In this document: positions 16,873 through 56,820 of the stretch, one piece after another | Layout of the letters: every line of letters begins with the position of its first letter | How positions within the stretch are numbered: position 1 is the stretch's first letter | Origin: Solihabitans fulvus | Lineage (GTDB): Bacteria > Actinomycetota > Actinomycetes > Mycobacteriales > Pseudonocardiaceae | DNA length: 64,000 nt | Direction of reading: 5' to 3' | Assembly: GCF_008386585.1 (NCBI RefSeq) | Contig: NZ_VUOB01000005.1 | Span: 40,232-104,231, forward strand | The notes under the pieces: model-generated | The model's database searches: none | What the model was told of the DNA's origin: nothing | Seen by the model: only the letters and a program-made list of their open reading frames with translations | Made by a program: the position numbers and the translations under genes

Positions 16873-19509
16873 CTACGCAGCGAGTGGGAAACGGCGGTCG
16901 ACCAGCCACGCGCGGTCGCCGCCGTGCCGCAGGCGCAGCAGGAAGTCCAACACCCCGGCGAACCCCACCTGGTAGCTCGGGCAGACCTCCCGCAGCGTGT
17001 CGTCGGGCACCAGCAACCGGCCGCGCACCCGCACCGCGCGGGTGAACAGGCAGGTCGCCAGCTCGGCGGCCTGCCGCCGATAACCGTCCTCGCCGGTCGC
17101 CTGCGCCAGGTCGAGCAGCAACTCGGCGTTGCCGGCCACGCCGTGGCAGATCCCCGGGCCGAGCCGCCACCGGTCCAGGTACGCCGCGCGGGCGGCCCGC
17201 CGCGCGTGGTCGAGGAACGTCGCGTCGCCGGTCTCCCGCCACAGCCGCACCAGGAACGTGCCGACCCCCGACGCGCCGTTGCACCAGAAGTCCAGCCCGG
17301 GACGCTCGGCCCGCCCCGGACCCTTGGGCCACCACGCGGCGTCGCCGCGCGTCCGCGCCACCGCGCACAGCGCGTGCCCGCCGCCGACCGCGACCTCGAC
17401 GAGGTCCGGCCGGCCGAGATCACGGCCCGCGGCCAGCAGGAACGCGCCGACCCCCGCGACGCCGTGCGCGAACCCGTAGCTGCCCAGCCCGGCGAGGTCG
17501 TCGCGGAATCCGCCGTCCGCCAACCAGTCCACCCCGGACCGGGCAAGGCGCACCTGCCGCAGCACCGTGTCCGCCGCGGCCGCCGCGCGCGCCGCGAACC
17601 GCTCGTCGCCGGTCGCGTGCCAGAACCGCAGCTGCGTCAGGCCGGCGCCCGCAACCCCGTGGCAGACGTCGAGATTGGGCCACGCCACGGGAATCTCCAG
17701 CGCCGACGCCGCCGCCCAGTCGGCCGTCGCGGAGTCGCCGAGCGCCACCGCCGCGTCGTGCAGCGCCCACACGGCGCCCGACCGCCCGAAGTGCAGGCCC
17801 GGCAACACCCTGCGCTCCTGCGGCAGCCGCCACCGCATCCACCGCACGGCCGACCGCAGCGCGGGCCGCGCTGACTCCAGGCCGTGCCCGACCGCGCGCC
17901 GCAGCAGCGCCACGACGCCGGCCGCGCCGGTCTGCACATTGCACGGGTCGCCGTGCGGCAGCGAGCTCGGCTGGGGCCACAGGTACTCGCCGGACGGGTC
18001 CATGGTGTCGGCCAGGTGCGCCAACCCGTCCCGCACCAACAGGTCGACGTCGACGTCCGGCAGCTCAGGCCCAGCCGACACCGGCGCCACCCGTGGCCCG
18101 CCAGTCCGCAGGAAACGCCTGGTGTGCGCCAGGGTCCACCGGTCCGGCTCGTCGGCGGTCAGGCCGAGCACAAGCGGCAACAGCGCGGCCAGCGCCGCGC
18201 TGCCCGGCGCGGCGGCGTGCGCCAGCGCCGCGAGGCGCTCGCCGATCCACCGGCCCGGCACCGTGTCCGGCACCAGCACGGGGTGAATGCCGGTGGTGGC
18301 GTGCAGGAGGGTCGCGCCGAGGCTGAAGCAGTCGGCCGACGGCTCCGGCGCGTGATCCGCGCCGGAGCGCAGGTACTCCGGGGCCACGAACCCGGCCGTG
18401 CCGACCACGGCGGTCCGCGTGCCGGGGCGCGTGGCGGCCTCGAGGTCGATCAGCAGGGGAGTGCCGTCGGACCGCATGATCACGTTGCTCGGCTTGAGGT
18501 CTCGCAGCACCAGCCCCACCGCGTGCACCCGGTCCAGCACCGAGCTCAGCGCCCCGGCGAGTTGCCAGGCGCTCTCCGGCGACGGCTGCCCGTCATGTTC
18601 GCGGTGCCAGTCCTGGAGGTTCGTGCCGTCGACGAACTCCTCGACCAGGAACAGGTGGCCGCCAGCCGAGAACAGGTCGAGCCGTTGCGGCGTGATCACG
18701 TGCGGCGCCAACAGGTCCAGCATGTCGGCCTCGTGCCGCAGCCAGTCCCGCGCGTCGCGCCCGTCGAGGTCGGCGCCGACGTGCGGGCGGGCCTCCTTGA
18801 TCAGCACGTCGTGGCCGGTGCGTTCGTCCCTGGCGCGGTACACGCCGCCCCGGTTGCTGTGCCGGATCGCCTCGCTCACCACGTAGCGGTCGGCCAGCCG
18901 CACCGGGTCGCCGCGCCGCCGTGTCGGCGTGTCCGTGGCGGGGAACGGGTCGACGGCCCAGGGCGGGGGAGCGAACCAGGGGAGCCGGTCGTCGCGGACC
19001 GAGGCGCCGTCGGGGTCGCGCAGCCGCATCTCGTAGCTGCCCTCGTCGGTCAGCTCCAGCGGCGCGTGGAAGCAGCCGTAGCGGTAGTGCACGAGACTGC
19101 CCCGGTGGTAGCGGCGGTCGGACAGGATCGCCGGCCCCGGCAGCCCGAGAGTGGCCTCGTGCAGGTCCTTGGCGAGCGCGCGCAGCCGGTCGTCGTCGGC
19201 GGGGTAGGCGGTGAGGAACTTCCCCGACCGCGCGCGATCCATCCGCGCCGACACCAGCCTGGCGGTCACCGCCGGCGTGCTGGCGAACTTGAACGCGCAG
19301 TCGTGCCGCAGCAGCACCCTGGCCGCGCGCTCCAGCACGGACGGCGCGGATCCGGGTGTCGCGGACAGGTGCAGCTTCCAGCCCTGCCGGCGCGGCTCGT
19401 GGTCGGGCGGGGTCACCAGGTACCAGGGTTCGCGCAGGTCGACCCGCCAGCCCGCGGCGGCATCCGGCTCGTCCAGGACGCGCTCGACGATGGGCAGGTA
19501 GTTCGGCAT
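16873..19509 (-). CDS. Trifunctional lanthipeptide synthetase (N-terminal lyase, Ser/Thr kinase, C-terminal LanC-like cyclase); LanL (class IV)-like
   Basis: Kinase motifs (GGVYRARD, VLIKEAR, VLRDLKPSNV, IDLEAA, GTAGFVAPE). LanC-like motifs with the Zn ligands conserved (VCHGVAGAG, FWCNGASGVG, ICHGVAGNAELLL). N-terminal lyase-like region (GWKLHLS, GKFLTAYP). Confidence 0.85.
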   Translation of the reverse strand: MPNYLPIVERVLDEPDAAAGWRVDLREPWYLVTPPDHEPRRQGWKLHLSATPGSAPSVLERAARVLLRHDCAFKFASTPAVTARLVSARMDRARSGKFLTAYPADDDRLRALAKDLHEATLGLPGPAILSDRRYHRGSLVHYRYGCFHAPLELTDEGSYEMRLRDPDGASVRDDRLPWFAPPPWAVDPFPATDTPTRRRGDPVRLADRYVVSEAIRHSNRGGVYRARDERTGHDVLIKEARPHVGADLDGRDARDWLRHEADMLDLLAPHVITPQRLDLFSAGGHLFLVEEFVDGTNLQDWHREHDGQPSPESAWQLAGALSSVLDRVHAVGLVLRDLKPSNVIMRSDGTPLLIDLEAATRPGTRTAVVGTAGFVAPEYLRSGADHAPEPSADCFSLGATLLHATTGIHPVLVPDTVPGRWIGERLAALAHAAAPGSAALAALLPLVLGLTADEPDRWTLAHTRRFLRTGGPRVAPVSAGPELPDVDVDLLVRDGLAHLADTMDPSGEYLWPQPSSLPHGDPCNVQTGAAGVVALLRRAVGHGLESARPALRSAVRWMRWRLPQERRVLPGLHFGRSGAVWALHDAAVALGDSATADWAAASALEIPVAWPNLDVCHGVAGAGLTQLRFWHATGDERFAARAAAAADTVLRQVRLARSGVDWLADGGFRDDLAGLGSYGFAHGVAGVGAFLLAAGRDLGRPDLVEVAVGGGHALCAVARTRGDAAWWPKGPGRAERPGLDFWCNGASGVGTFLVRLWRETGDATFLDHARRAARAAYLDRWRLGPGICHGVAGNAELLLDLAQATGEDGYRRQAAELATCLFTRAVRVRGRLLVPDDTLREVCPSYQVGFAGVLDFLLRLRHGGDRAWLVDRRFPLAA

Positions 19510-33035: not shown

Positions 33036-33703
33036 GGCGTCGTGTCCTTCGTGGCTGGTTGGGGTGGCCGCGTCCAGGAACGCAGCAGGATCTCGACGGC
33101 GTCGACGACGACCTCGTCGCCGACGTCCTCCGGGGTGAGCAGGCGCTGGATGAGCAGGCCGTCCTCAAGGGCGTGCAGGATCAGCGCGAGGAACGCGAGG
33201 TCCGCTGGCGGTTCGGCGTCGTTCGCGCGGAACTCGCGTTCGAGGCCGGCGGCCATGGCCGCGCGGGCGAAGCGTTCCCGTTCGGCCAGCACGGGCCGGA
33301 TCTCCTTGTGCCGCAGCGCGTACAGCAGCAGTTCGGTGCGCAGCGCGAGCCACTGGGTGAGGTGCTTGGCTCGGTCGCGGTGCCACTGGCGCAGCGGCGC
33401 CAGCGCGTCCTGGAAGGAGCCCGCGGCCTCGCCGAGCGCCCGCACCTCCTCGAACTCGTGCTCGGTTCGCTGCCGGAGCAGGGCGAGGACCAGCTCGTGC
33501 TTGTCGTCGAAGTTGCCGTAGAACGCGCCACGGCTGTAGCCGGCCCGCTCGGCGATCTGCTCGACCGACGCACCGCTGACGCCCTGCTCGGCGAACAGCT
33601 CGGCGGCGGCGGTGAGCAGCCGTTCCCTGGTCTGTTCCCGGCTTTCCGCGCGGCTCAGGCGGCGTGGCGGCACGATGCCCCTCCCGGTGATACGTGGCTG
33701 CAT
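33032..33703 (-). CDS. TetR/AcrR-family transcriptional regulator
   Basis: HTH region SVEQIAERAGYSRGAFYGNF. Confidence 0.85.
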   Translation of the reverse strand: MQPRITGRGIVPPRRLSRAESREQTRERLLTAAAELFAEQGVSGASVEQIAERAGYSRGAFYGNFDDKHELVLALLRQRTEHEFEEVRALGEAAGSFQDALAPLRQWHRDRAKHLTQWLALRTELLLYALRHKEIRPVLAERERFARAAMAAGLEREFRANDAEPPADLAFLALILHALEDGLLIQRLLTPEDVGDEVVVDAVEILLRSWTRPPQPATKDTTP

Positions 33704-35611: not shown

Positions 35612-35947
35612 ATGCGTGCCCTGCACCATCCCGACGCGAACTCCGTCGACCTGGCGACCGTCCTCAATGCCCTGGCTGATCCGGTTCGGCTCGAAGTCGT
35701 GCGGCAGCTCGCCGAGTCCGACGGCGTGGTGTGCGGTGGACTGTCCGTCCCGGTCAGCATGTCCACGCTGTCGCACCACCTCAAGGTGCTGCGCGAGGCC
35801 GGGCTGCTGAGGGTGATCCCGCAGGGCAGCTTTCGCCGCCACGAACTGCGCATGACCGAGCTGGAGCAACGCTTCCCCGGCGTGATCTCCTCCATCATCC
35901 GGTCCTGCCCGGCGCCGTCGGTCCGACCGGAACAGCAGCCCCGATGA
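35612..35947 (+). CDS. ArsR/SmtB-family transcriptional regulator
   Basis: HTH region LADPVRLEVVRQL ... MSTLSHHLKVLREAGLL. Confidence 0.8.
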   Translation: MRALHHPDANSVDLATVLNALADPVRLEVVRQLAESDGVVCGGLSVPVSMSTLSHHLKVLREAGLLRVIPQGSFRRHELRMTELEQRFPGVISSIIRSCPAPSVRPEQQPR

Positions 35948-37107
35948 CCGCCCTGCCGGCGATCGACCCCGAGCAGCGACGGGCCCGCCTCGGTTCGCGG
36001 CACCTGCTGGCCGCCTCGGCCAGGGTCGACACGGCCGAGGCCGTCGCCGACGCGCTGGTCGCCCTGCACGCCACCGACCCCGCCACGGTGTTCCTGTCCG
36101 CCGGCGCCCGCCTGACCGGCCCGGGGCCGCTGCCGGTGGAGCGGGCCCTGTACGAGCGGGCCACGCTGACCCGCATGCACGGCATGCGCAACACCGTGTT
36201 CGTGGTGCCGACCGAGCTGGTGCCCGTCGTGCACTGCTCGACCACCCACGCCGTGGCGGCGCGCGAACGCAAGGGCCTGCTGGGTTTCCTCCGCGACGGC
36301 GGCTTCGACCAGGCCTGGCTCGCCGAGGTGGAGGCGGCCGCGCTCGCCGCGCTCGCCGACCGAGGCTCGGCCACCGCAGGCGAACTGGCCGCCGACGTGC
36401 CAGGCCTGGCCGAGCAGATCGTCGTCGCGGCGGGGAAACCCTACGAGGCCAAGGCGAGCGTGGTCACCAAGCTGCTGCGGGTCCTCGGCGTGGAGGGGCG
36501 GATCGTGCGGGGCCGCCCGCGCGGCTCGTGGATCAGCGGCCAGCACGAGTGGACGCTGGCCGGCGCGATGCCGGAGATCCCGGTGGCCGAAGCCCAGGCC
36601 GACCTGGTGGCGCGCTGGCTGGCCGCCTACGGTCCCGGCACCGAGGCGGACCTGAAGTGGTGGACCGGCTGGACCCTCACGGCCGTCCGCAAGGCGCTGG
36701 CCACGGTCGGCGCGGTCACCGTCGACCTCGCCGAGGGCACGGGCCACGCGCTGGCCGAGGACGTCGAGCCCGTCGCCGCCCCCGAGCCGTGGGCGGCGCT
36801 GCTGCCCGCCCTCGACCCGACGCCGATGGGCTGGCAGCACCGCGACTGGTACCTGCCCCAGGAACACCGCGCCGCGCTGTTCGACCGCTCGGGCAACATC
36901 GGCCCGACGGTGTGGTGGAACGGCCAGGTCGTCGGCGGCTGGGCGCAGCGACCCGACGGCGAGATCGCCCTGCGGCTGCTGACCGGCCTCGGCCGGGACG
37001 CGCGGGCCGCCGTCCAGGCCGAGGCCGCGCGACTGGCGGCGTGGCTGGACGGCGTCCGCGTCACGCCGCGCTTCCGCACCCCGCTGGAACGGGAACTCGC
37101 CGCCTGA
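35944..37107 (+). CDS. Winged-helix DNA-binding domain protein (DUF1006/YcaQ-like)
   Basis: ATG overlaps the ArsR stop (ATGA); the track ORF 35731.. is an in-frame upstream extension. Confidence 0.7.
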   Translation: MTALPAIDPEQRRARLGSRHLLAASARVDTAEAVADALVALHATDPATVFLSAGARLTGPGPLPVERALYERATLTRMHGMRNTVFVVPTELVPVVHCSTTHAVAARERKGLLGFLRDGGFDQAWLAEVEAAALAALADRGSATAGELAADVPGLAEQIVVAAGKPYEAKASVVTKLLRVLGVEGRIVRGRPRGSWISGQHEWTLAGAMPEIPVAEAQADLVARWLAAYGPGTEADLKWWTGWTLTAVRKALATVGAVTVDLAEGTGHALAEDVEPVAAPEPWAALLPALDPTPMGWQHRDWYLPQEHRAALFDRSGNIGPTVWWNGQVVGGWAQRPDGEIALRLLTGLGRDARAAVQAEAARLAAWLDGVRVTPRFRTPLERELAA

Positions 37108-50347: not shown

Positions 50348-50929
50348 CTACCGCAGCAGGCGCAGCGCCTGGTCGACGGCGTCGCGCAGCCGGTCGGGGT
50401 CGGGGCGGGCCCGCCCGAGCACGCGCACGCCCTGCAACAGCACCAGCAGGAACCTGGCCAGCGCGCGCGGGTCGGCCTCGGCGGCGAGCTCGCCCTGGGC
50501 GCGGGCCCGCAGCAGCGCGCCGGTGAGCGCGACCTCGAGGTTGGCCCAGCTCGCGTCGACGAGCCTGGCCGCCTCGGCGTCGGTCGAGGCGAGCTCGACG
50601 GCCGCGTTGACCACCATGCAGCCCAGCCGCAGCTCGTCGGTGGCGGACTGGTCAGCGAACCGCTCCACCAGCGCGCGCACCGAGGGCAGCACGGGGCCAG
50701 GCCGGGACAGCTCGTCGAGGATCTGGGGGTCGGTGGTCGCCAGGTAGCGGCGCAGCGCGGCGAGGTAGAGGTCGCGCTTGCCGCCGAAGGTGCCGTAGAT
50801 GCTGGCCCTGGCGATGCCGAGGTGTTCGACGAGGTCGGCCATGGAGGTGGCCTCGTAGCCGCGCCGCCAGAACAGCTCCAGCGCGGACTGGAGCACCGCG
50901 TCCGGGTCGAACTCCTTGGCTCTTGGCAC
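50348..50929 (-). CDS. TetR-family transcriptional regulator
   Basis: HTH region TSMADLVEHLGIARASIYGTF. Confidence 0.85.
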   Translation of the reverse strand: MPRAKEFDPDAVLQSALELFWRRGYEATSMADLVEHLGIARASIYGTFGGKRDLYLAALRRYLATTDPQILDELSRPGPVLPSVRALVERFADQSATDELRLGCMVVNAAVELASTDAEAARLVDASWANLEVALTGALLRARAQGELAAEADPRALARFLLVLLQGVRVLGRARPDPDRLRDAVDQALRLLR

Positions 50930-50957
50930 CCCGTGAACCTACGTCAAATAAGAACGA

Positions 50958-51275
50958 TCAGTCAAGAACGAGTGCCGGTTCCTCGGCGAGCACGAGGTCG
51001 AGCAGGCCAGGGAAGCGCGCGTCGAGGTCGTCGCGGCGCAGCGTCAGGTAGAGCTTGCGGCCGGAGCGGCGCTGGTGCAGGACGCCGGCCTCGCGCAGGA
51101 CCCGCCAGTGGTGGGTCATCGTGGACTTCGGCGCGCCGGTCTCGATCGCGCCGCAGAAGGTCTCCTCGCCCGAGGCGAGCGCGTGCACGATCGACATCCG
51201 GATCGGGTGCCCGAGCGCGGCCATGACCCCTTCGAGCCGCAGCTGCTCGCGTGTCGGGTGGGGGAGTTCGACCAT
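50958..51275 (-). CDS. ArsR-family transcriptional regulator
   Basis: Start MVELPHPTREQLRL at ATG 51275; HTH region PIRMSIVHALASGEETFCGAIE ... MTHHWRVLREAGVL. Confidence 0.8.
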   Translation of the reverse strand: MVELPHPTREQLRLEGVMAALGHPIRMSIVHALASGEETFCGAIETGAPKSTMTHHWRVLREAGVLHQRRSGRKLYLTLRRDDLDARFPGLLDLVLAEEPALVLD

Positions 51276-51289
51276 CGCACCACCGTACC

Positions 51290-51395
51290 GAAAAGTCGTA
51301 CTAACGCGTCTCACCTGCTTGACATCGCTCGCTCGACTGTACGAAAGTTCCGTACGTTCGGACTGTTCGGCTTTTCCGGACAGTCGTACGACTTG
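51290..51395. promoter_or_regulatory. Cluster of GTACG-core palindromes in the arsR/MFS divergent promoter: GTCGTAC (51295), GTACGAAAGTTCCGTAC (51339-51355), AGTCGTACGACT (51382-51393); TTGACA at 51319
   Basis: Several perfect or near-perfect inverted repeats sharing a GTACGAC core, consistent with an ArsR-type operator array. Read directly from the sequence. Confidence 0.5.
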
Positions 51396-51412
51396 TCGTT
51401 GAGAAGGAACCG

Positions 51413-52888
51413 ATGCCCTCCACTCCGCCATCGCCGGGCCCCCACCGCCGCCGCCTCGGTTTCGCCCTGGCGCTGCTGGCGTTCGCCCAGCTCGTCATCG
51501 CGTTGGACTTCAACATCGTGTACGTCGCGCTGCCCGAGATCGGCCGCGCGCTAGGCTTCTCCGCCCAGTCGTTGCAGTGGGTGGTCAGCGCCTACGCCGT
51601 GGCCTTCGGCGGGTTCCTGCTGCTGGGCGGGCGGGCCGCGGACCTGCTCGGCAGGCGCCGCGTGTTCGCCGCGGCCCTCGCCCTCTACGCCGTGTCCTCG
51701 CTGGTCGGCGGCCTCGCGTCCGGCCCTGGCCTGCTGGTCGCGGCGCGCGCGGTGCAGGGCGTCGGCGGCGCGCTGCTGTTCCCGGCGACCCTGTCGCTGG
51801 TCAACACCATGTTCGCGGAGGGAGCCGAACGCAACCGCGCCCTCGCGGTGTGGGGCGGGGCCGGCGCCAGCGGCCTGTGCCTCGGGTCGCTGCTGGGCGG
51901 CGTGCTCACCGACGCCTTCGGCTGGACCTCGGTGTTCTGCGTCAACGTGCCGCTGGCCGGCGTCGCCGCGCTGCTGGCGTTCGCGCTCATCCCGCGCGAC
52001 CCGGCTCGCGAGCGCGGCCGCGGCGTCGACCTGCCCGGTGCGGTGACCGCGACCGCCGGGGTCACGCTGCTGGTGTTCGCTCTCGTGCGGGGACCCGACG
52101 CGGGCTGGGGTTCGCCGACCGTCGTCGGTTGCCTGGTGGCCGCCGCCGCCCTGCTGGCCGCGTTCGCCGTCATCGAGTCCCGCGCCTGGGACCCGCTGAT
52201 GCCGTTGCGGCTGTTCGCCAACCGCAGCCTGCGCGCCGGCATGGCCATCACGTTCATCTTCATGGGCACCTTCAGCGCCCTGCCCTACTTCCTCACGCTG
52301 TACTTCCAGAACGTGCACGGCTACAGCCCGTTGCAGACCGGCCTCGGGTTCCTGGTGCCGTCGCTGGTGATCGCCGTCGGCACACAGGTCGGCGAGCGGA
52401 TGGTCGGCAGGCTCGACGTGCGCGCCACCCTGCTGACCGGCCTGGTCCTCGGCGCGGTCGGCACGGCCGGGCTCGCGCTGGGCATGTCCACCGACGGCAG
52501 CTACCTCGCGCTGCTGCCCGGCATCGTCGTGTTCTGCCTCGGCCAGGGCGTGACCTGGACCGGCATGTGGATCGCGGCGGCCTCCGGGGTGGACCACCGC
52601 GAACAGGGCGTCGCCTCGGGCATGGCCTCCACCACCCAGCAGGTCGGCGGCGCGATCGGGCTTGCGGTGCTCGTCGCGCTGGCCAACTCGCGCCTGCACG
52701 GCCTGACCGGCGAGGCCCTGCGCCGCGAGCTGACCGGCGGGGTCCGCACCGCCGTGCTCGTCGCGGCCGCCGGCATGGTCCTCGGCGCGCTGGTCGCCCT
52801 GACCTTCCGGACCCGCGCGCACGGCACGGTCGAGCCCGCCGTGGCCGCCGACGCGTTCGAACCCGCCATCGCCCGCCACGAGGACTGA
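51413..52888 (+). CDS. MFS transporter, 14-TM DHA2 drug:H+ antiporter type
   Basis: RBS GAAGGA upstream of the ATG; MFS motif A-like GRAADLLGRRR; 14 hydrophobic segments. Confidence 0.9.
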   Translation: MPSTPPSPGPHRRRLGFALALLAFAQLVIALDFNIVYVALPEIGRALGFSAQSLQWVVSAYAVAFGGFLLLGGRAADLLGRRRVFAAALALYAVSSLVGGLASGPGLLVAARAVQGVGGALLFPATLSLVNTMFAEGAERNRALAVWGGAGASGLCLGSLLGGVLTDAFGWTSVFCVNVPLAGVAALLAFALIPRDPARERGRGVDLPGAVTATAGVTLLVFALVRGPDAGWGSPTVVGCLVAAAALLAAFAVIESRAWDPLMPLRLFANRSLRAGMAITFIFMGTFSALPYFLTLYFQNVHGYSPLQTGLGFLVPSLVIAVGTQVGERMVGRLDVRATLLTGLVLGAVGTAGLALGMSTDGSYLALLPGIVVFCLGQGVTWTGMWIAAASGVDHREQGVASGMASTTQQVGGAIGLAVLVALANSRLHGLTGEALRRELTGGVRTAVLVAAAGMVLGALVALTFRTRAHGTVEPAVAADAFEPAIARHED

Positions 52889-52952
52889 CCTCCGGGTGTC
52901 CGTGGCGTGGATCCGCCCCGCCGCGGACACCCCCTTTTTCCTGGAGAGACCG

Positions 52953-54437
52953 ATGCACACCGATTTTGACGTGGCCATCGTCGGCGGCGGGCCCGTCGGC
53001 ACGCTGCTGGCGGCCGAACTGGGCCTGCACCGCGTCCGCGCGGTCGTCCTGGAACGGCTGCCGGAGCCCTCAGGGCAGTCCAAGGCCGGCACCCTGCACG
53101 CCCGCACCGCCCAGACCCTGGACCGGCGCGGCCTGCTCGAGGAGGTCGCCGCCCTGGACCGGCCCCGCCCAGCAGGCGCGCCCGTCCCGTTCCACTTCGC
53201 CGGGATCTTCGGCCTCGACCTCGGCCACCTGTCGCCGGGCCCCGCGCTGGTCGGCGCGCCGCAGGCGTGGGCAGAGCAGGTCTTCGCCGACCGCGCGGCC
53301 CGGCGCGGCGTGCCCATTCGCCGAGGACACGCCGTGGTCGGGCTCGCCGACCACGGCGACCACGTCGCACTCGAGGTCACCGGCCCCGACGGCCCCTACC
53401 GGCTCACCGCAGGGTTCGTCGTCGGCGCGGACGGCGCGCGCAGCGCCGTGCGGTCGCTGGCCGGCATCCCGTTCGTCGGGCACGGCGCGACGGTGGCCGC
53501 GCTGATGGGCGACGTGCGGCTGCTGGCGCCCCACGACGCCCCGCAGGGCTGGCAGCGCACCCCACGCGGCTGGATCATGACCTTCGTCAACCCCGCCGGC
53601 GTCAGCAGGGTGTTCACCTACGACTTCACCGCCCCGCATCCCGACCGCCGCGCGCCGGTGACGCTCGAGGAGTTCCGGCGCACCGCCGAGCGCATCGCCG
53701 GCCGGCCCGTGCCGATGGCCGAACCCCGATGGCTGACCCGCTTCGGCGACGCCGCGCTCCAGGCCAAGACCTACCGCGCCGGCCGGGTGCTGCTGGCCGG
53801 GGACGCGGCGCACGTACACTTCCCGACCGGCGGCCAAGGCGTGAACACCGGCCTCCAGGACGCGGTGAACCTGGGCTGGAAGCTCGCCGCGCAGGTCGCC
53901 GGCTGGGCCCCCGACGGCCTGCTGGACAGCTACCACGGCGAGCGGCACCCGGTGGCGGCGCGGGTGCTGTGGAACGTGCGCGCCCAGGTCGCCCTGATGC
54001 GGCCCGGCCCCGAGGTCGACCCGCTGCGGGAGCTGTTCGCGGAGCTGCTGGACCTGCCGCAGGTCAACGACCGGCTCGGCCGGATGATCAGCGGCCTGGA
54101 CATCGCCTACGACGTGGGCCTGCCCGGGGTCGCGGCGGCCGGGCGGCTGGCCGAGGACCGCGACCTCAAGACCGCCGACGGGCCGGTGCGCCTGGCGCGG
54201 CTGCTGCACGCGGGCCGCCCGGTGCTGCTGGACCTCACCGACCGGGCGGACCTGCGGCGGGTCGCCGAGCCGGTGGCCGACCGGGTCGACGTGGTGACCG
54301 CGCTGCCGGTCGTCGACGACGGCGCCGGGGCGCTGCTGATCCGCCCGGACGGGTACGTCGCCTGGGCCGAGCACGACCACCGGAGGGATCCCGCGACGCT
54401 GCGGGCCGCGCTGACGCGCTGGTTCGGCGGCCCTTGA
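52953..54437 (+). CDS. FAD-dependent aromatic-ring monooxygenase (Rox/TetX/PheA-like class A flavoprotein monooxygenase)
   Basis: FAD-binding motifs DVAIVGGGPVGTLLA, DG (GADGARSAVR), and GD...H...G (LAGDAAHVHFPTGGQGVNTG). ATG 52953 after RBS GGAGAG. Confidence 0.85.
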   Translation: MHTDFDVAIVGGGPVGTLLAAELGLHRVRAVVLERLPEPSGQSKAGTLHARTAQTLDRRGLLEEVAALDRPRPAGAPVPFHFAGIFGLDLGHLSPGPALVGAPQAWAEQVFADRAARRGVPIRRGHAVVGLADHGDHVALEVTGPDGPYRLTAGFVVGADGARSAVRSLAGIPFVGHGATVAALMGDVRLLAPHDAPQGWQRTPRGWIMTFVNPAGVSRVFTYDFTAPHPDRRAPVTLEEFRRTAERIAGRPVPMAEPRWLTRFGDAALQAKTYRAGRVLLAGDAAHVHFPTGGQGVNTGLQDAVNLGWKLAAQVAGWAPDGLLDSYHGERHPVAARVLWNVRAQVALMRPGPEVDPLRELFAELLDLPQVNDRLGRMISGLDIAYDVGLPGVAAAGRLAEDRDLKTADGPVRLARLLHAGRPVLLDLTDRADLRRVAEPVADRVDVVTALPVVDDGAGALLIRPDGYVAWAEHDHRRDPATLRAALTRWFGGP

Positions 54438-54531
54438 CCGGTGCGGCTGCCCGTGGCAGGGCCTGCCGGCGGTAGCGGACCCCTCGCCGGGCTGCCACGG
54501 TGGGGGAGCCGCTACCGCGAGGGGGTCCCCC

Positions 54532-55890
54532 ATGCGTCGACGTCTGCTGATCGGCATCGCCTTCGTGCTCGCCGCCCTGGTGGGGGCGCCCTCGGCCGGG
54601 TGGGCCGCGCCGGGCGACACCGTGGTCGACGGGACGCTGCCCGACGGCGCGGCCTACCGGTTCGAGGTGCCCGCCGGCTGGAACGGCACGCTGCTGCTGT
54701 TCAGCCACGGCTACCGCGGCCCCGGCAGCCCCAACCCCGCCGCCGACGGGCCCGACGCGCAGACAGACCGGTGGCTGCTGGCGCACGGCTACGCGCTGGC
54801 CGGATCGTCCTACGCCACCACCGGCTGGGCGGTGGCCCAGGCCGTGCCCGACCAGGCCGCCACCGCCGAGCTGTTCGCTGCGCGATTCGGCCACCCGCGC
54901 CGCACCATCGCGTGGGGCTCCTCGCTCGGCGGGCTGGTCACCGGGAGCCTGCTGGACGCGCGTCCCGACCTGGTCACCGGCGCACTGCCGATGTGCGGGG
55001 TCCTCGACCCGGTCGGCGCGTGGAACCAGGCCCTTGACGCGGAGTTCGTGTTCGCGACGCTCGCCGCGCCGACGGCGAACCTGCGGCTGGTCGGCATCAC
55101 CGACCCGGTCGGCAACCTCGCCGGCGCGCAGGCCGCCCTGGACGCCGCCCAGGCCACGCCGCAGGGCCGGGCCCGCATCGCGTTGACCGCGGCGGTCGCC
55201 GACGTGCCGGCGTGGTCGGACCCGAGCGCGCCGGAACCGGCCGCGGGCGACCTGGCCGCGCAGGAGCACAACCAGTACGTCGACCTGCGCGCCGCGGCGT
55301 TCCCGTTCGCGTTCGCGCTGCGGGCCGAGCTGGAGGCGCGGGCCGGCGGGGTCGTGTCGTGGAACACCGGTGTCGACTACCGCCGCCAGCTGGCGCGGTC
55401 GGCGGACCGGTCGCTCGCGCTGGGTCTGTACCGCGCGGCCGGGCTGCCGGTGGAGGCCGACCTGGCGGCGCTGGCGGCGGCGCCGAGGGTGGCCGCCGAC
55501 CGGCGCGCGGTGGCGTACCTGGCGGCCAACCACGAGCCGTCCGGGCGGCTGGCGGTGCCGGTGCTGACGCTGCACACCACGGGCGACGGCCTGGTCGCGC
55601 CCGAGCAGGAACGCGCGTATCGGAACGCGGTGGCCCAAGCCGGGGACGGGCGGCTGCTGCGGCAGGTGTTCGTGCACCGCGCGGGGCACTGCGCGTTCAC
55701 GATGGGGGAGGCGGTGGCGGCGTTGCGGGCGTTGGAGCACCGCCTGGACACCGGGCGCTGGGACGGGGCGACCGAGCCCTCGGCGCTGAACGCGGCGGCC
55801 TCGGCGGTGGGCGGTCCGGTCGCGCCGGCCTTCCTGCGCTACCGACCGGGCCCGCCGGAGCGCACCGAAACGGGTTTGCGCGACGGCTGA
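54532..55890 (+). CDS. Secreted alpha/beta-hydrolase-fold protein
   Basis: Signal peptide (LIGIAFVLAALVGAPSAGWA) and nucleophile elbow GSSLGG. Confidence 0.65.
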   Translation: MRRRLLIGIAFVLAALVGAPSAGWAAPGDTVVDGTLPDGAAYRFEVPAGWNGTLLLFSHGYRGPGSPNPAADGPDAQTDRWLLAHGYALAGSSYATTGWAVAQAVPDQAATAELFAARFGHPRRTIAWGSSLGGLVTGSLLDARPDLVTGALPMCGVLDPVGAWNQALDAEFVFATLAAPTANLRLVGITDPVGNLAGAQAALDAAQATPQGRARIALTAAVADVPAWSDPSAPEPAAGDLAAQEHNQYVDLRAAAFPFAFALRAELEARAGGVVSWNTGVDYRRQLARSADRSLALGLYRAAGLPVEADLAALAAAPRVAADRRAVAYLAANHEPSGRLAVPVLTLHTTGDGLVAPEQERAYRNAVAQAGDGRLLRQVFVHRAGHCAFTMGEAVAALRALEHRLDTGRWDGATEPSALNAAASAVGGPVAPAFLRYRPGPPERTETGLRDG

Positions 55891-55936
55891 GCCCATGACA
55901 CGCTCCTAACGCAACTAAAGTAGCACTAGGAGCGAT

Positions 55937-56709
55937 GTGGCGCAGCGGCACACCCATCCGACGATCACCGAACGACCGGTCTCCGACGCGGCCGCCGGGC
56001 CCTACGGCATCGCCACGGGCCCCGACGGCGCGCTGTGGCTCACGCTCGTGCACGCGGGCGGTGTCGCGCGCCTGGACACCGACGGCACGGTCACCAGCCA
56101 CCGGCTCGACTCGGCGACCTGCCGCCCCATGGTCATCACCGCCGGGCCGGACGGCGCGCTGTGGTTCACCGGGATGAACACCGACACCGTCGGCCGCGTC
56201 ACCGCCGACGGCGAGGTCACCGAGTTCGCGCTGCCCAACCAAGGGCGCCATGGCCTCCTTCATCACCATCGGCCCCGACGGGGGCACTGTGGTGCACCCT
56301 CAACCAGGCCAACGCCGTCGCCAGGGTCGACACCGGCGGCGAGGTGACGATCCACCCGGTGCCCACCGAGGGCGCGGCGCCCGTCGGCATCACCGCGAGC
56401 GGCGACGCCCTGTGGTTGGTGGAGATCGGCGCCGGCCAACTGGGCCGCATCGACACCGACGGCCGCGTCGAAGAGTTCCCGCTGCCCGACCGCGCCGCGC
56501 GGCCGCACGCCATCGTCGCCGGCGCGGACGGGTCGTGCTGGTTCACCGAATGGGGCACCGGCCGCGTCGGCCACGTCACCGCCGACGGCGACATCGACGT
56601 GTACCCGCTGCCCGACCCGCGCAGCGAGCCACACGGCCTGACCGTAGGCCCCGACGGCGCGGTGTACGTGGCGCTGGAAACCGGGTTGGCGGCCCGCCTG
56701 GAACCGTAG
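55937..56709 (+). pseudogene. vgb: Streptogramin B (virginiamycin B) lyase Vgb homolog, disrupted by two +1 frameshifts
   Basis: Vgb beta-propeller repeats (GPYGIATGPDGALWLT; AGPDGALWFTGMNT; EFALPN-; ALWCTLNQAN; DALWLVEIG; ARPHAIVAGADGSCWFTEWG; EPHGLTVGPDG). The reading frame shifts at about 56238 (an extra C in aacc) and at about 56280-56284 (a G5 run). Removing one base at each site restores ...LPNKGAMASFITIGPDGALWCTL... Confidence 0.7.
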
Positions 56710-56820
56710 CGCCATTTCCGACCGACACCCGAACAATCACGGGACGCACGGTGGTGCCCCGACCGGATTCCGGTCGGGGCACCACACGCGATCAGCGAGA
56801 TCGGTGTGTCGGAGGAAACG

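Follow-up and report, generated by a model that had tools for sequence, protein, structure and literature searches.

A likely recent pseudogene of the Vgb streptogramin B lyase family with three lesions in Solihabitans fulvus

Is a Vgb-like gene that has to be read in three frames a decaying resistance gene, a product of sequencing or assembly error, or a gene that is still read through in some unusual way? Streptogramin B lyases linearise streptogramin B in an Mg2+-dependent reaction that opens the ester bond by elimination. A first-pass annotation of the window analysed here (the whole stretch of S. fulvus DNA, 64,000 nt) had described such a gene, with two +1 frameshifts about 45 nt apart, and had left real inactivating mutations and errors side by side as explanations. 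Translation of the window places a Vgb-family beta-propeller at positions 55937-56709 (+), coded over 773 nt in three consecutive frames. A Shine-Dalgarno-like AGGAG (55928-55932, +) lies 4 nt ahead of a GTG start codon (55937-55939, +) in the blade-1 frame, and the N-termini of homologs align from this GTG onward in a MAFFT alignment.

The three frames divide the gene into segments that each carry recognizable parts of the propeller. Segment A (phase 2, +), from GTG 55937 to about 56239 and ending in ...TADGEVTEFALPN, comprises the N-terminus, blade 1, and a hybrid blade made of a blade-2 head and a blade-3 tail; it matches HMM positions 2-96 in a frame-wise HMM search and has a GC3 of 0.96. 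Segment B (phase 0, +, about 56240-56284, GC3 1.00) spans about 45 nt and reads KGAMASFITIGPDG, the head of blade 4, with 11 of 14 residues identical to the aligned sequence P0011 (SGAMASMITAGPDG). Segment C (phase 1, +, about 56285-56709, GC3 0.94), reading ALWCTLNQANAVARV...LEP, completes blade 4, supplies blades 5-7 and ends in the stop codon (56707-56709); it matches HMM positions 146-289 in the same kind of search. No in-frame stop occurs within any of the three segments when each is read in its own frame.

With one C taken out at 56239/40 and one G out of the G5 run (56280-84), an open reading frame of 771 nt and 256 codons results. The repaired protein scores 389.3 bits against Pfam Vgb_lyase PF24684 (cut-off 50) and is matched by phmmer to the solved lyases 2qc5 (E = 1e-74) and 2z2n (E = 3e-73), unbroken over both sites, while single frame pieces each match a family HMM unaided, at 105 and 216 bits. 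The Vgb-specific motifs TLNQAN, RPHAI and SEPHG are all kept in the alignment. The family scores and phmmer matches thus bear out the earlier identification of a vgb-like gene, and the alignment confirms that one base cut per site yields a continuous ...EFALPNKGAMASFITIGPDGALWCTLNQ... homologous to Vgb; the repaired protein as a whole aligns homologously and continuously over both sites, and the non-homology that the first-pass annotation had allowed for was not seen. PF24684 describes genes read in a single uninterrupted frame; this one occupies three, with the frame A stop at 56347.

Because the blades are repeats and one of them is missing, the whole-protein HMM score is unreliable for placing the shifts (the summed multi-domain score was erratic, 366-394 bits); it was rejected, and a local HMM covering the blade-3 tail to the blade-4 head, built from 55 homologs, was used instead. 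A grid search scored all pairs of single-base deletions as well as all single-event repairs. The best pair of 1-nt deletions reached 109.7 bits, while no single event, whether the deletion of a dinucleotide or the insertion of 1 nt, exceeded 83.3 bits, so that the two-insertion model is better than any single-event model by about 26 bits. Independent agreement with two extra bases comes from the spacing of blade starts in the DNA, which needs no translation: the intervals are 253 (= 2 x 126 + 1), 127, 123 and 126 nt, of which the first two each hold one base too many. Both the grid search and the repeat spacing therefore uphold the claim of two +1 frameshifts about 45 nt apart.

The first extra base, at the passage from frame A to frame B, was placed by the grid search in 56233-56246 (+), inside cCCCAACCAAGGGc. 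Cutting any base in this zone gives 107.7-109.7 bits, save for one lower-ranked class, and the resulting repairs LPTKGAM, LPNKGAM and LPNQGAM differ by no more than 2 bits, so the position is resolved to about 7 nt; the choices that preserve GC-ending codons are A 56237/38, C 56239/40 and A 56241/42. The second, at the passage from frame B to frame C, falls in 56279-56287 (+), where the G5 run at 56280-56284 scores best: cutting one G restores DGALW at 109.7 bits, and cutting C56285 or A56286 gives DGGLW at 107.5 bits. The earlier placement of the second shift at about 56280-56284 accordingly stands, whereas that of the first at about 56238 lies within the zone but is good only to its resolution of about 7 nt. 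Likewise, the description of both sites as homopolymer-like holds for the G5 run of the second but not for the first, which consists of runs of 2-3 bases.

Besides the frameshifts, the gene has lost a blade, and the earlier statement that all diagnostic Vgb repeats are present has to be withdrawn, since only six of seven blades are found and a 42-aa unit is gone. The repaired protein has 256 aa, compared with about 290 aa in Vgb and nearly all relatives, and MAFFT alignment opens a single 42-column gap relative to every seven-bladed homolog and S. aureus Vgb. PF24684 is described as seven-bladed and about 290-300 aa long; this copy has six blades and 256 aa. The blade-2 head (DSATCRPMVITAGPDGALWF) is fused straight to the blade-3 tail (TGMNTDTVGRVTADGEVTEF), and HMM positions 96-146 are partly covered, with just 14 residues between the 2-96 and 146-289 matches. 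At the deletion junction (56144-56170, +), a lone GPDGALWFT is followed by the blade-3 tail GMNTDTVGRV, with 42 aa (126 nt) gone. A 15-nt stretch, GACGGCGCGCTGTGG, is common to blades 1 and 2 at the GPDGALWFT motif and is the type of repeat that permits unequal recombination; loss of an exact 126-nt unit by this route would be the simplest reading. The MAFFT alignment and blade-specific motifs place the loss between blades 2 and 3. We rejected hmmalign for this purpose, as the repeat register slides and the loss is reported as N-terminal.

What remains of the gene retains the residues expected of a lyase. We take Tyr18, His228, Glu268, His270 and Glu284 in S. aureus numbering to be active-site or Mg2+-site residues, and PDB 2z2p is the inactive H270A variant. 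The Tyr at 56003-56005 (Y23 of the repaired protein) aligns with Vgb Tyr18, and alignment to 2z2n equates four residues of segment C, namely His 56506-08, Glu 56626-28, His 56632-34 and Glu 56677-79, with H228, E268, H270 and E284, respectively. The repaired protein has the same residues as S. aureus Vgb at all five positions (Y23, H190, E230, H232 and E247), and the last four occupy invariant alignment columns. The Mg2+ and substrate site of Vgb lies in blades 6-7 (PMC8916777), which are present in the S. fulvus copy. The locus combines three lesions with a clear family assignment, an intact codon bias and intact catalytic codons.

None of these residues beyond the N-terminal part is reached if the sequence is translated as it stands. 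Frame A ends at TGA 56345-56347 (ORF 55937..56347), giving a 136-aa product of 101 Vgb-like residues and a 35-residue out-of-frame tail; in a codon log-odds scan, the coding signal stops 105 nt ahead of this TGA. The product amounts to about 2.3 blades, without blades 4-7 and without the metal-binding and catalytic residues of blades 6-7, so that no lyase would be made and the gene has presumably lost its function. Lyase activity of VgbC has been assayed by following the decrease in absorbance at 305 nm (PMC5155152).

We consider it likely that the locus is a real and recently inactivated Vgb-family pseudogene of S. fulvus with three independent lesions. One would be the in-frame loss of 126 nt (one blade) by unequal recombination, with the nearly identical stretches that code for GPDGALWFT in blades 2 and 3 as partners; another, a 1-nt insertion somewhere in 56233-56246; and a further one, a 1-nt insertion in 56279-56287, most simply by G4 to G5 slippage. 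Translation from GTG 55937 would then halt at TGA 56345-56347 and leave the 136-aa fragment and no lyase. We infer both that the indels belong to the genome itself and did not arise in the assembly, and the order of these events. Inactivation looks recent, as the catalytic residues, the GC3 of 0.94-1.00 and the AGGAG-GTG start are all intact. Real decay is favoured by the third independent lesion, by the finding of no other frameshift signature in 64 kb and by the frequent decay of the Vgb family elsewhere. Weighing on the other side, the gene looks pristine apart from the three lesions, and a pair of indels separated by only about 45 nt could be the sign of a spot where the assembly is poor.

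The main rival to a recent pseudogene is a sequencing or assembly error, such that the organism has an intact, 256-codon, six-bladed Vgb-like gene and the extra bases are local draft artefacts. We regard this as a distinctly less probable but serious explanation. The two indels are close together, one of them within the G5 run, and the source is a draft genome with a 241-kb contig. The remaining gene is undecayed, with a high GC3 throughout, no stops, and catalytic residues and ribosome-binding site intact; six-blade relatives exist as intact ORFs (P0020); and the AlphaFold2 model of the repaired protein is confident (pLDDT 93.9, pTM 0.91). However, when the codon log-odds scan was applied to the roughly 60 genes in the 64-kb window, a coding signal ending >100 nt before the stop was seen only in the Vgb-like ORF. 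The lack of any further frameshift signature excludes a general indel-error problem, so that two errors in a single 773-nt gene would require a special local cause; nor does the first site sit in a homopolymer. At 33083, the only other abutting junction, what had looked like another frameshift is an ordinary ATGA overlap of two genes.

The fold of the repaired protein also bears on whether a six-bladed enzyme exists here. In the AlphaFold2 model, confidence is lowest (81-89) at residues 51-90, around the hybrid blade. Foldseek places the model, which is a weak and alignment-biased guide, nearest to seven-bladed Vgb (query-normalised TM 0.92 to 2z2o) and further from designed six-bladed Pizza proteins (0.76-0.79), which hints weakly against an error having hidden a sound six-bladed gene. 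The model suggests that the protein would hold a seven-fold geometry with a blade missing and not a closed six-fold ring, a prediction biased by the seven-blade alignment. The ORF of P0020, 256 aa long and uninterrupted, lies on a contig of 118 kb near FtsK/SpoIIIE and RepSA genes, which indicates that six-blade ORFs persist in nature, and the uninterrupted one-blade-short relatives P0020 and P0005 imply that blade loss by itself may not inactivate. At the P0020 locus (L080, 8320-10771), about 2.5 kb separate the gene from FtsK/SpoIIIE and RepSA; integrative conjugative elements of actinomycetes typically carry such genes, so the P0020 copy may be mobile. That the extra bases are assembly errors and that S. 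fulvus truly makes a six-bladed Vgb-like enzyme is, taken together, improbable. If true, it would mean, with P0020 and P0005, that an enzymatic seven-bladed propeller sheds a whole blade repeatedly by repeat recombination and still folds and acts.

Far less credible is recoding, in which two programmed +1 ribosomal frameshifts or transcriptional slippage would yield the full-length protein. Its only support is that the two shifts have one and the same direction and that the G5 run would let tRNA-Gly re-pair in the +1 frame. Genes with prfB-type +1 frameshifts have a slippery site, an in-frame stop or slow codon, and an upstream SD-like stimulator, and these features are conserved among homologs; this combination was found at neither site. 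Neither has a stop codon, a rare "hungry" codon or an SD-like stimulator positioned as in prfB, intact homologs are single-frame at both positions, and the frameshifted loci L058 and L059 shift elsewhere, at about HMM positions 250 and 76. The runs here, of 2-5 bases, are shorter than known transcriptional slippage requires. An equally negligible chance attaches to a generic beta-propeller (of the NHL, SMP-30 or gluconolactonase type) or chance resemblance, which weak secondary matches to SGL, NHL and DUF7133 might suggest but which is already refuted by scores and structure matches, with Vgb_lyase at 389 bits against <=37 for other families, solved Vgb structures ranking top by sequence (E = 1e-74) and by fold (E = 1e-28), and the TLNQAN, RPHAI and SEPHG motifs in place.

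The surroundings of the probable pseudogene offer some further context. Four genes run in the same direction here, with the Vgb-like gene at their end, and a resistome-like gene string (50348-55890) lies upstream of this gene, comprising a TetR regulator (50348-50929, -), a DHA2 MFS efflux pump (51413-52888, +; best match Lmr(A), below cut-off), a Rox-like, rifampin-monooxygenase-like FAD monooxygenase (52896-54437, +; rif_monoox 402 bits, cut-off 800), and an S9/DUF6351-type alpha/beta-hydrolase (54532-55890, +). The hydrolase is 100% identical to KAA2265737.1/WP_149848022.1 of Solihabitans fulvus, and its next best match is 64% identical, indicating that no close relative of S. fulvus has been sequenced. 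A collection of 5.8 billion proteins contained no S. fulvus Vgb protein fragment, though the product of this neighbour was present at 100%, a pattern that would fit a pseudogene flag in the public record. None of 10 neighbouring proteins was shared with the 79 Vgb loci compared below, and we counted this absence of synteny in favour of a pseudogene, as a sign of a dispensable context. A search for a second copy of the locus, by one genome scan and two metagenome DNA scans, turned up no sequence closer than about 60-68% amino acid identity: matches in the genome scan stayed at or below about 62%, and the metagenome scans, one with an exact 27-mer and the other with the degenerate AMASFITIGPDG pattern, gave 0 matches.

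Several structures around the gene deserve mention in their own right. A perfect 17-bp inverted repeat (56751-56785) lies between the convergent Vgb-like and SdrD-B-domain genes; its RNA fold has an energy of -42.7 kcal/mol (z = -6.6, with 0/200 shuffles equally stable), and it is likely a bidirectional terminator. A scan for consensus promoters and terminators found nothing, a negative that carries no information at the 74% GC of this actinomycete, and the hairpin, being without a T-tract, was missed by it. Within the 46-nt spacer before the Vgb start, an imperfect hairpin (55901-55934, +) brings CTCCTA into pairing with TAGGAG, the ribosome-binding site; the fold, computed over 63 nt, has an energy of -22.5 kcal/mol (z = -2.1, with 6/200 shuffles as stable), and the hairpin may mask the ribosome-binding site or be due to chance. 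Elsewhere in the window, a class IV lanthipeptide synthetase of 878 aa (16873-19509, -; LanL 991 bits, cut-off 650) is encoded; it combines a RamC_N, a protein kinase and a LanC-like domain and probably signals the presence of a lanthipeptide gene cluster. An AlkZ-like DNA glycosylase (35938-37107, +; PF06224, 227 bits) is also encoded, from a family that includes self-resistance enzymes against DNA-crosslinking natural products.

Among known systems, the closest relatives are chromosomal "Vgb family protein" genes of actinomycetes (e.g. Streptomyces, Micromonospora, Actinophytocola and Allonocardiopsis), at 58-68% identity, which share with the S. fulvus copy the high-GC codon usage, the N-terminus and the blade order. 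The comparison covered 79 Vgb loci, taken as species representatives from other species (L001-L079). Uninterrupted, single-frame genes of about 290 aa with all or nearly all seven blades make up 73 of the 79, whereas in the S. fulvus copy the frame is shifted and material from blades 2/3 is missing. The closest full-length relative (L001, 8001-8891, 68% identity) comes from a contig that binning assigned to a Kofleriaceae (Myxococcota) MAG, which could reflect mis-binning or horizontal transfer.

Decay recurs among these relatives. Of the 79 loci, two (L058 and L059) carry frameshifts, and a further four (L069, L072, L076 and L078) survive as truncated remnants; in addition, the tail of P0028 is frameshifted, and one blade is missing from each of P0005 and P0020, at junctions other than that in S. 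fulvus. Some decayed Vgb-family copies in other actinomycetes are truncated to 2-5 blades. The lesions in L058, L059, L069, L072, L076, L078, P0005 and P0020 are of the same kinds as in S. fulvus, namely frameshift or loss of whole blades at repeat boundaries, and their different junctions and positions imply independent events, which points to recurrent unequal recombination between blade repeats in the Vgb family. Near-identical blade repeats invite such recombination, so that actinomycete Vgb genes are often frameshifted, truncated or one blade short, and with decay this frequent, homology-based counts of "vgb" exceed the number of functional lyases. The S. fulvus gene is probably an ordinary decaying accessory gene of a well-known family, fit for annotation as a three-lesion Vgb-family pseudogene and not as a streptogramin resistance determinant in resistome surveys; what is mildly interesting is only that whole blades have been lost repeatedly in an enzyme family built from repeats.

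The S. fulvus copy belongs with the staphylococcal lyases Vgb(A) and Vgb(B) (2z2n/2z2o/2z2p and 2qc5) in PF24684, shares 35-40% identity and the blade motifs, and keeps the equivalents of Tyr18, His228, Glu268, His270 and Glu284. It scores 201 and 230 bits against the clinical allele models NCBIfam NF000022 and NF000096, below their cut-off of 600. Unlike Vgb(A) and Vgb(B), it has six blades instead of seven and a frame broken twice, and whereas the staphylococcal genes are plasmid-borne in a pathogen, it is chromosomal in a soil actinomycete.
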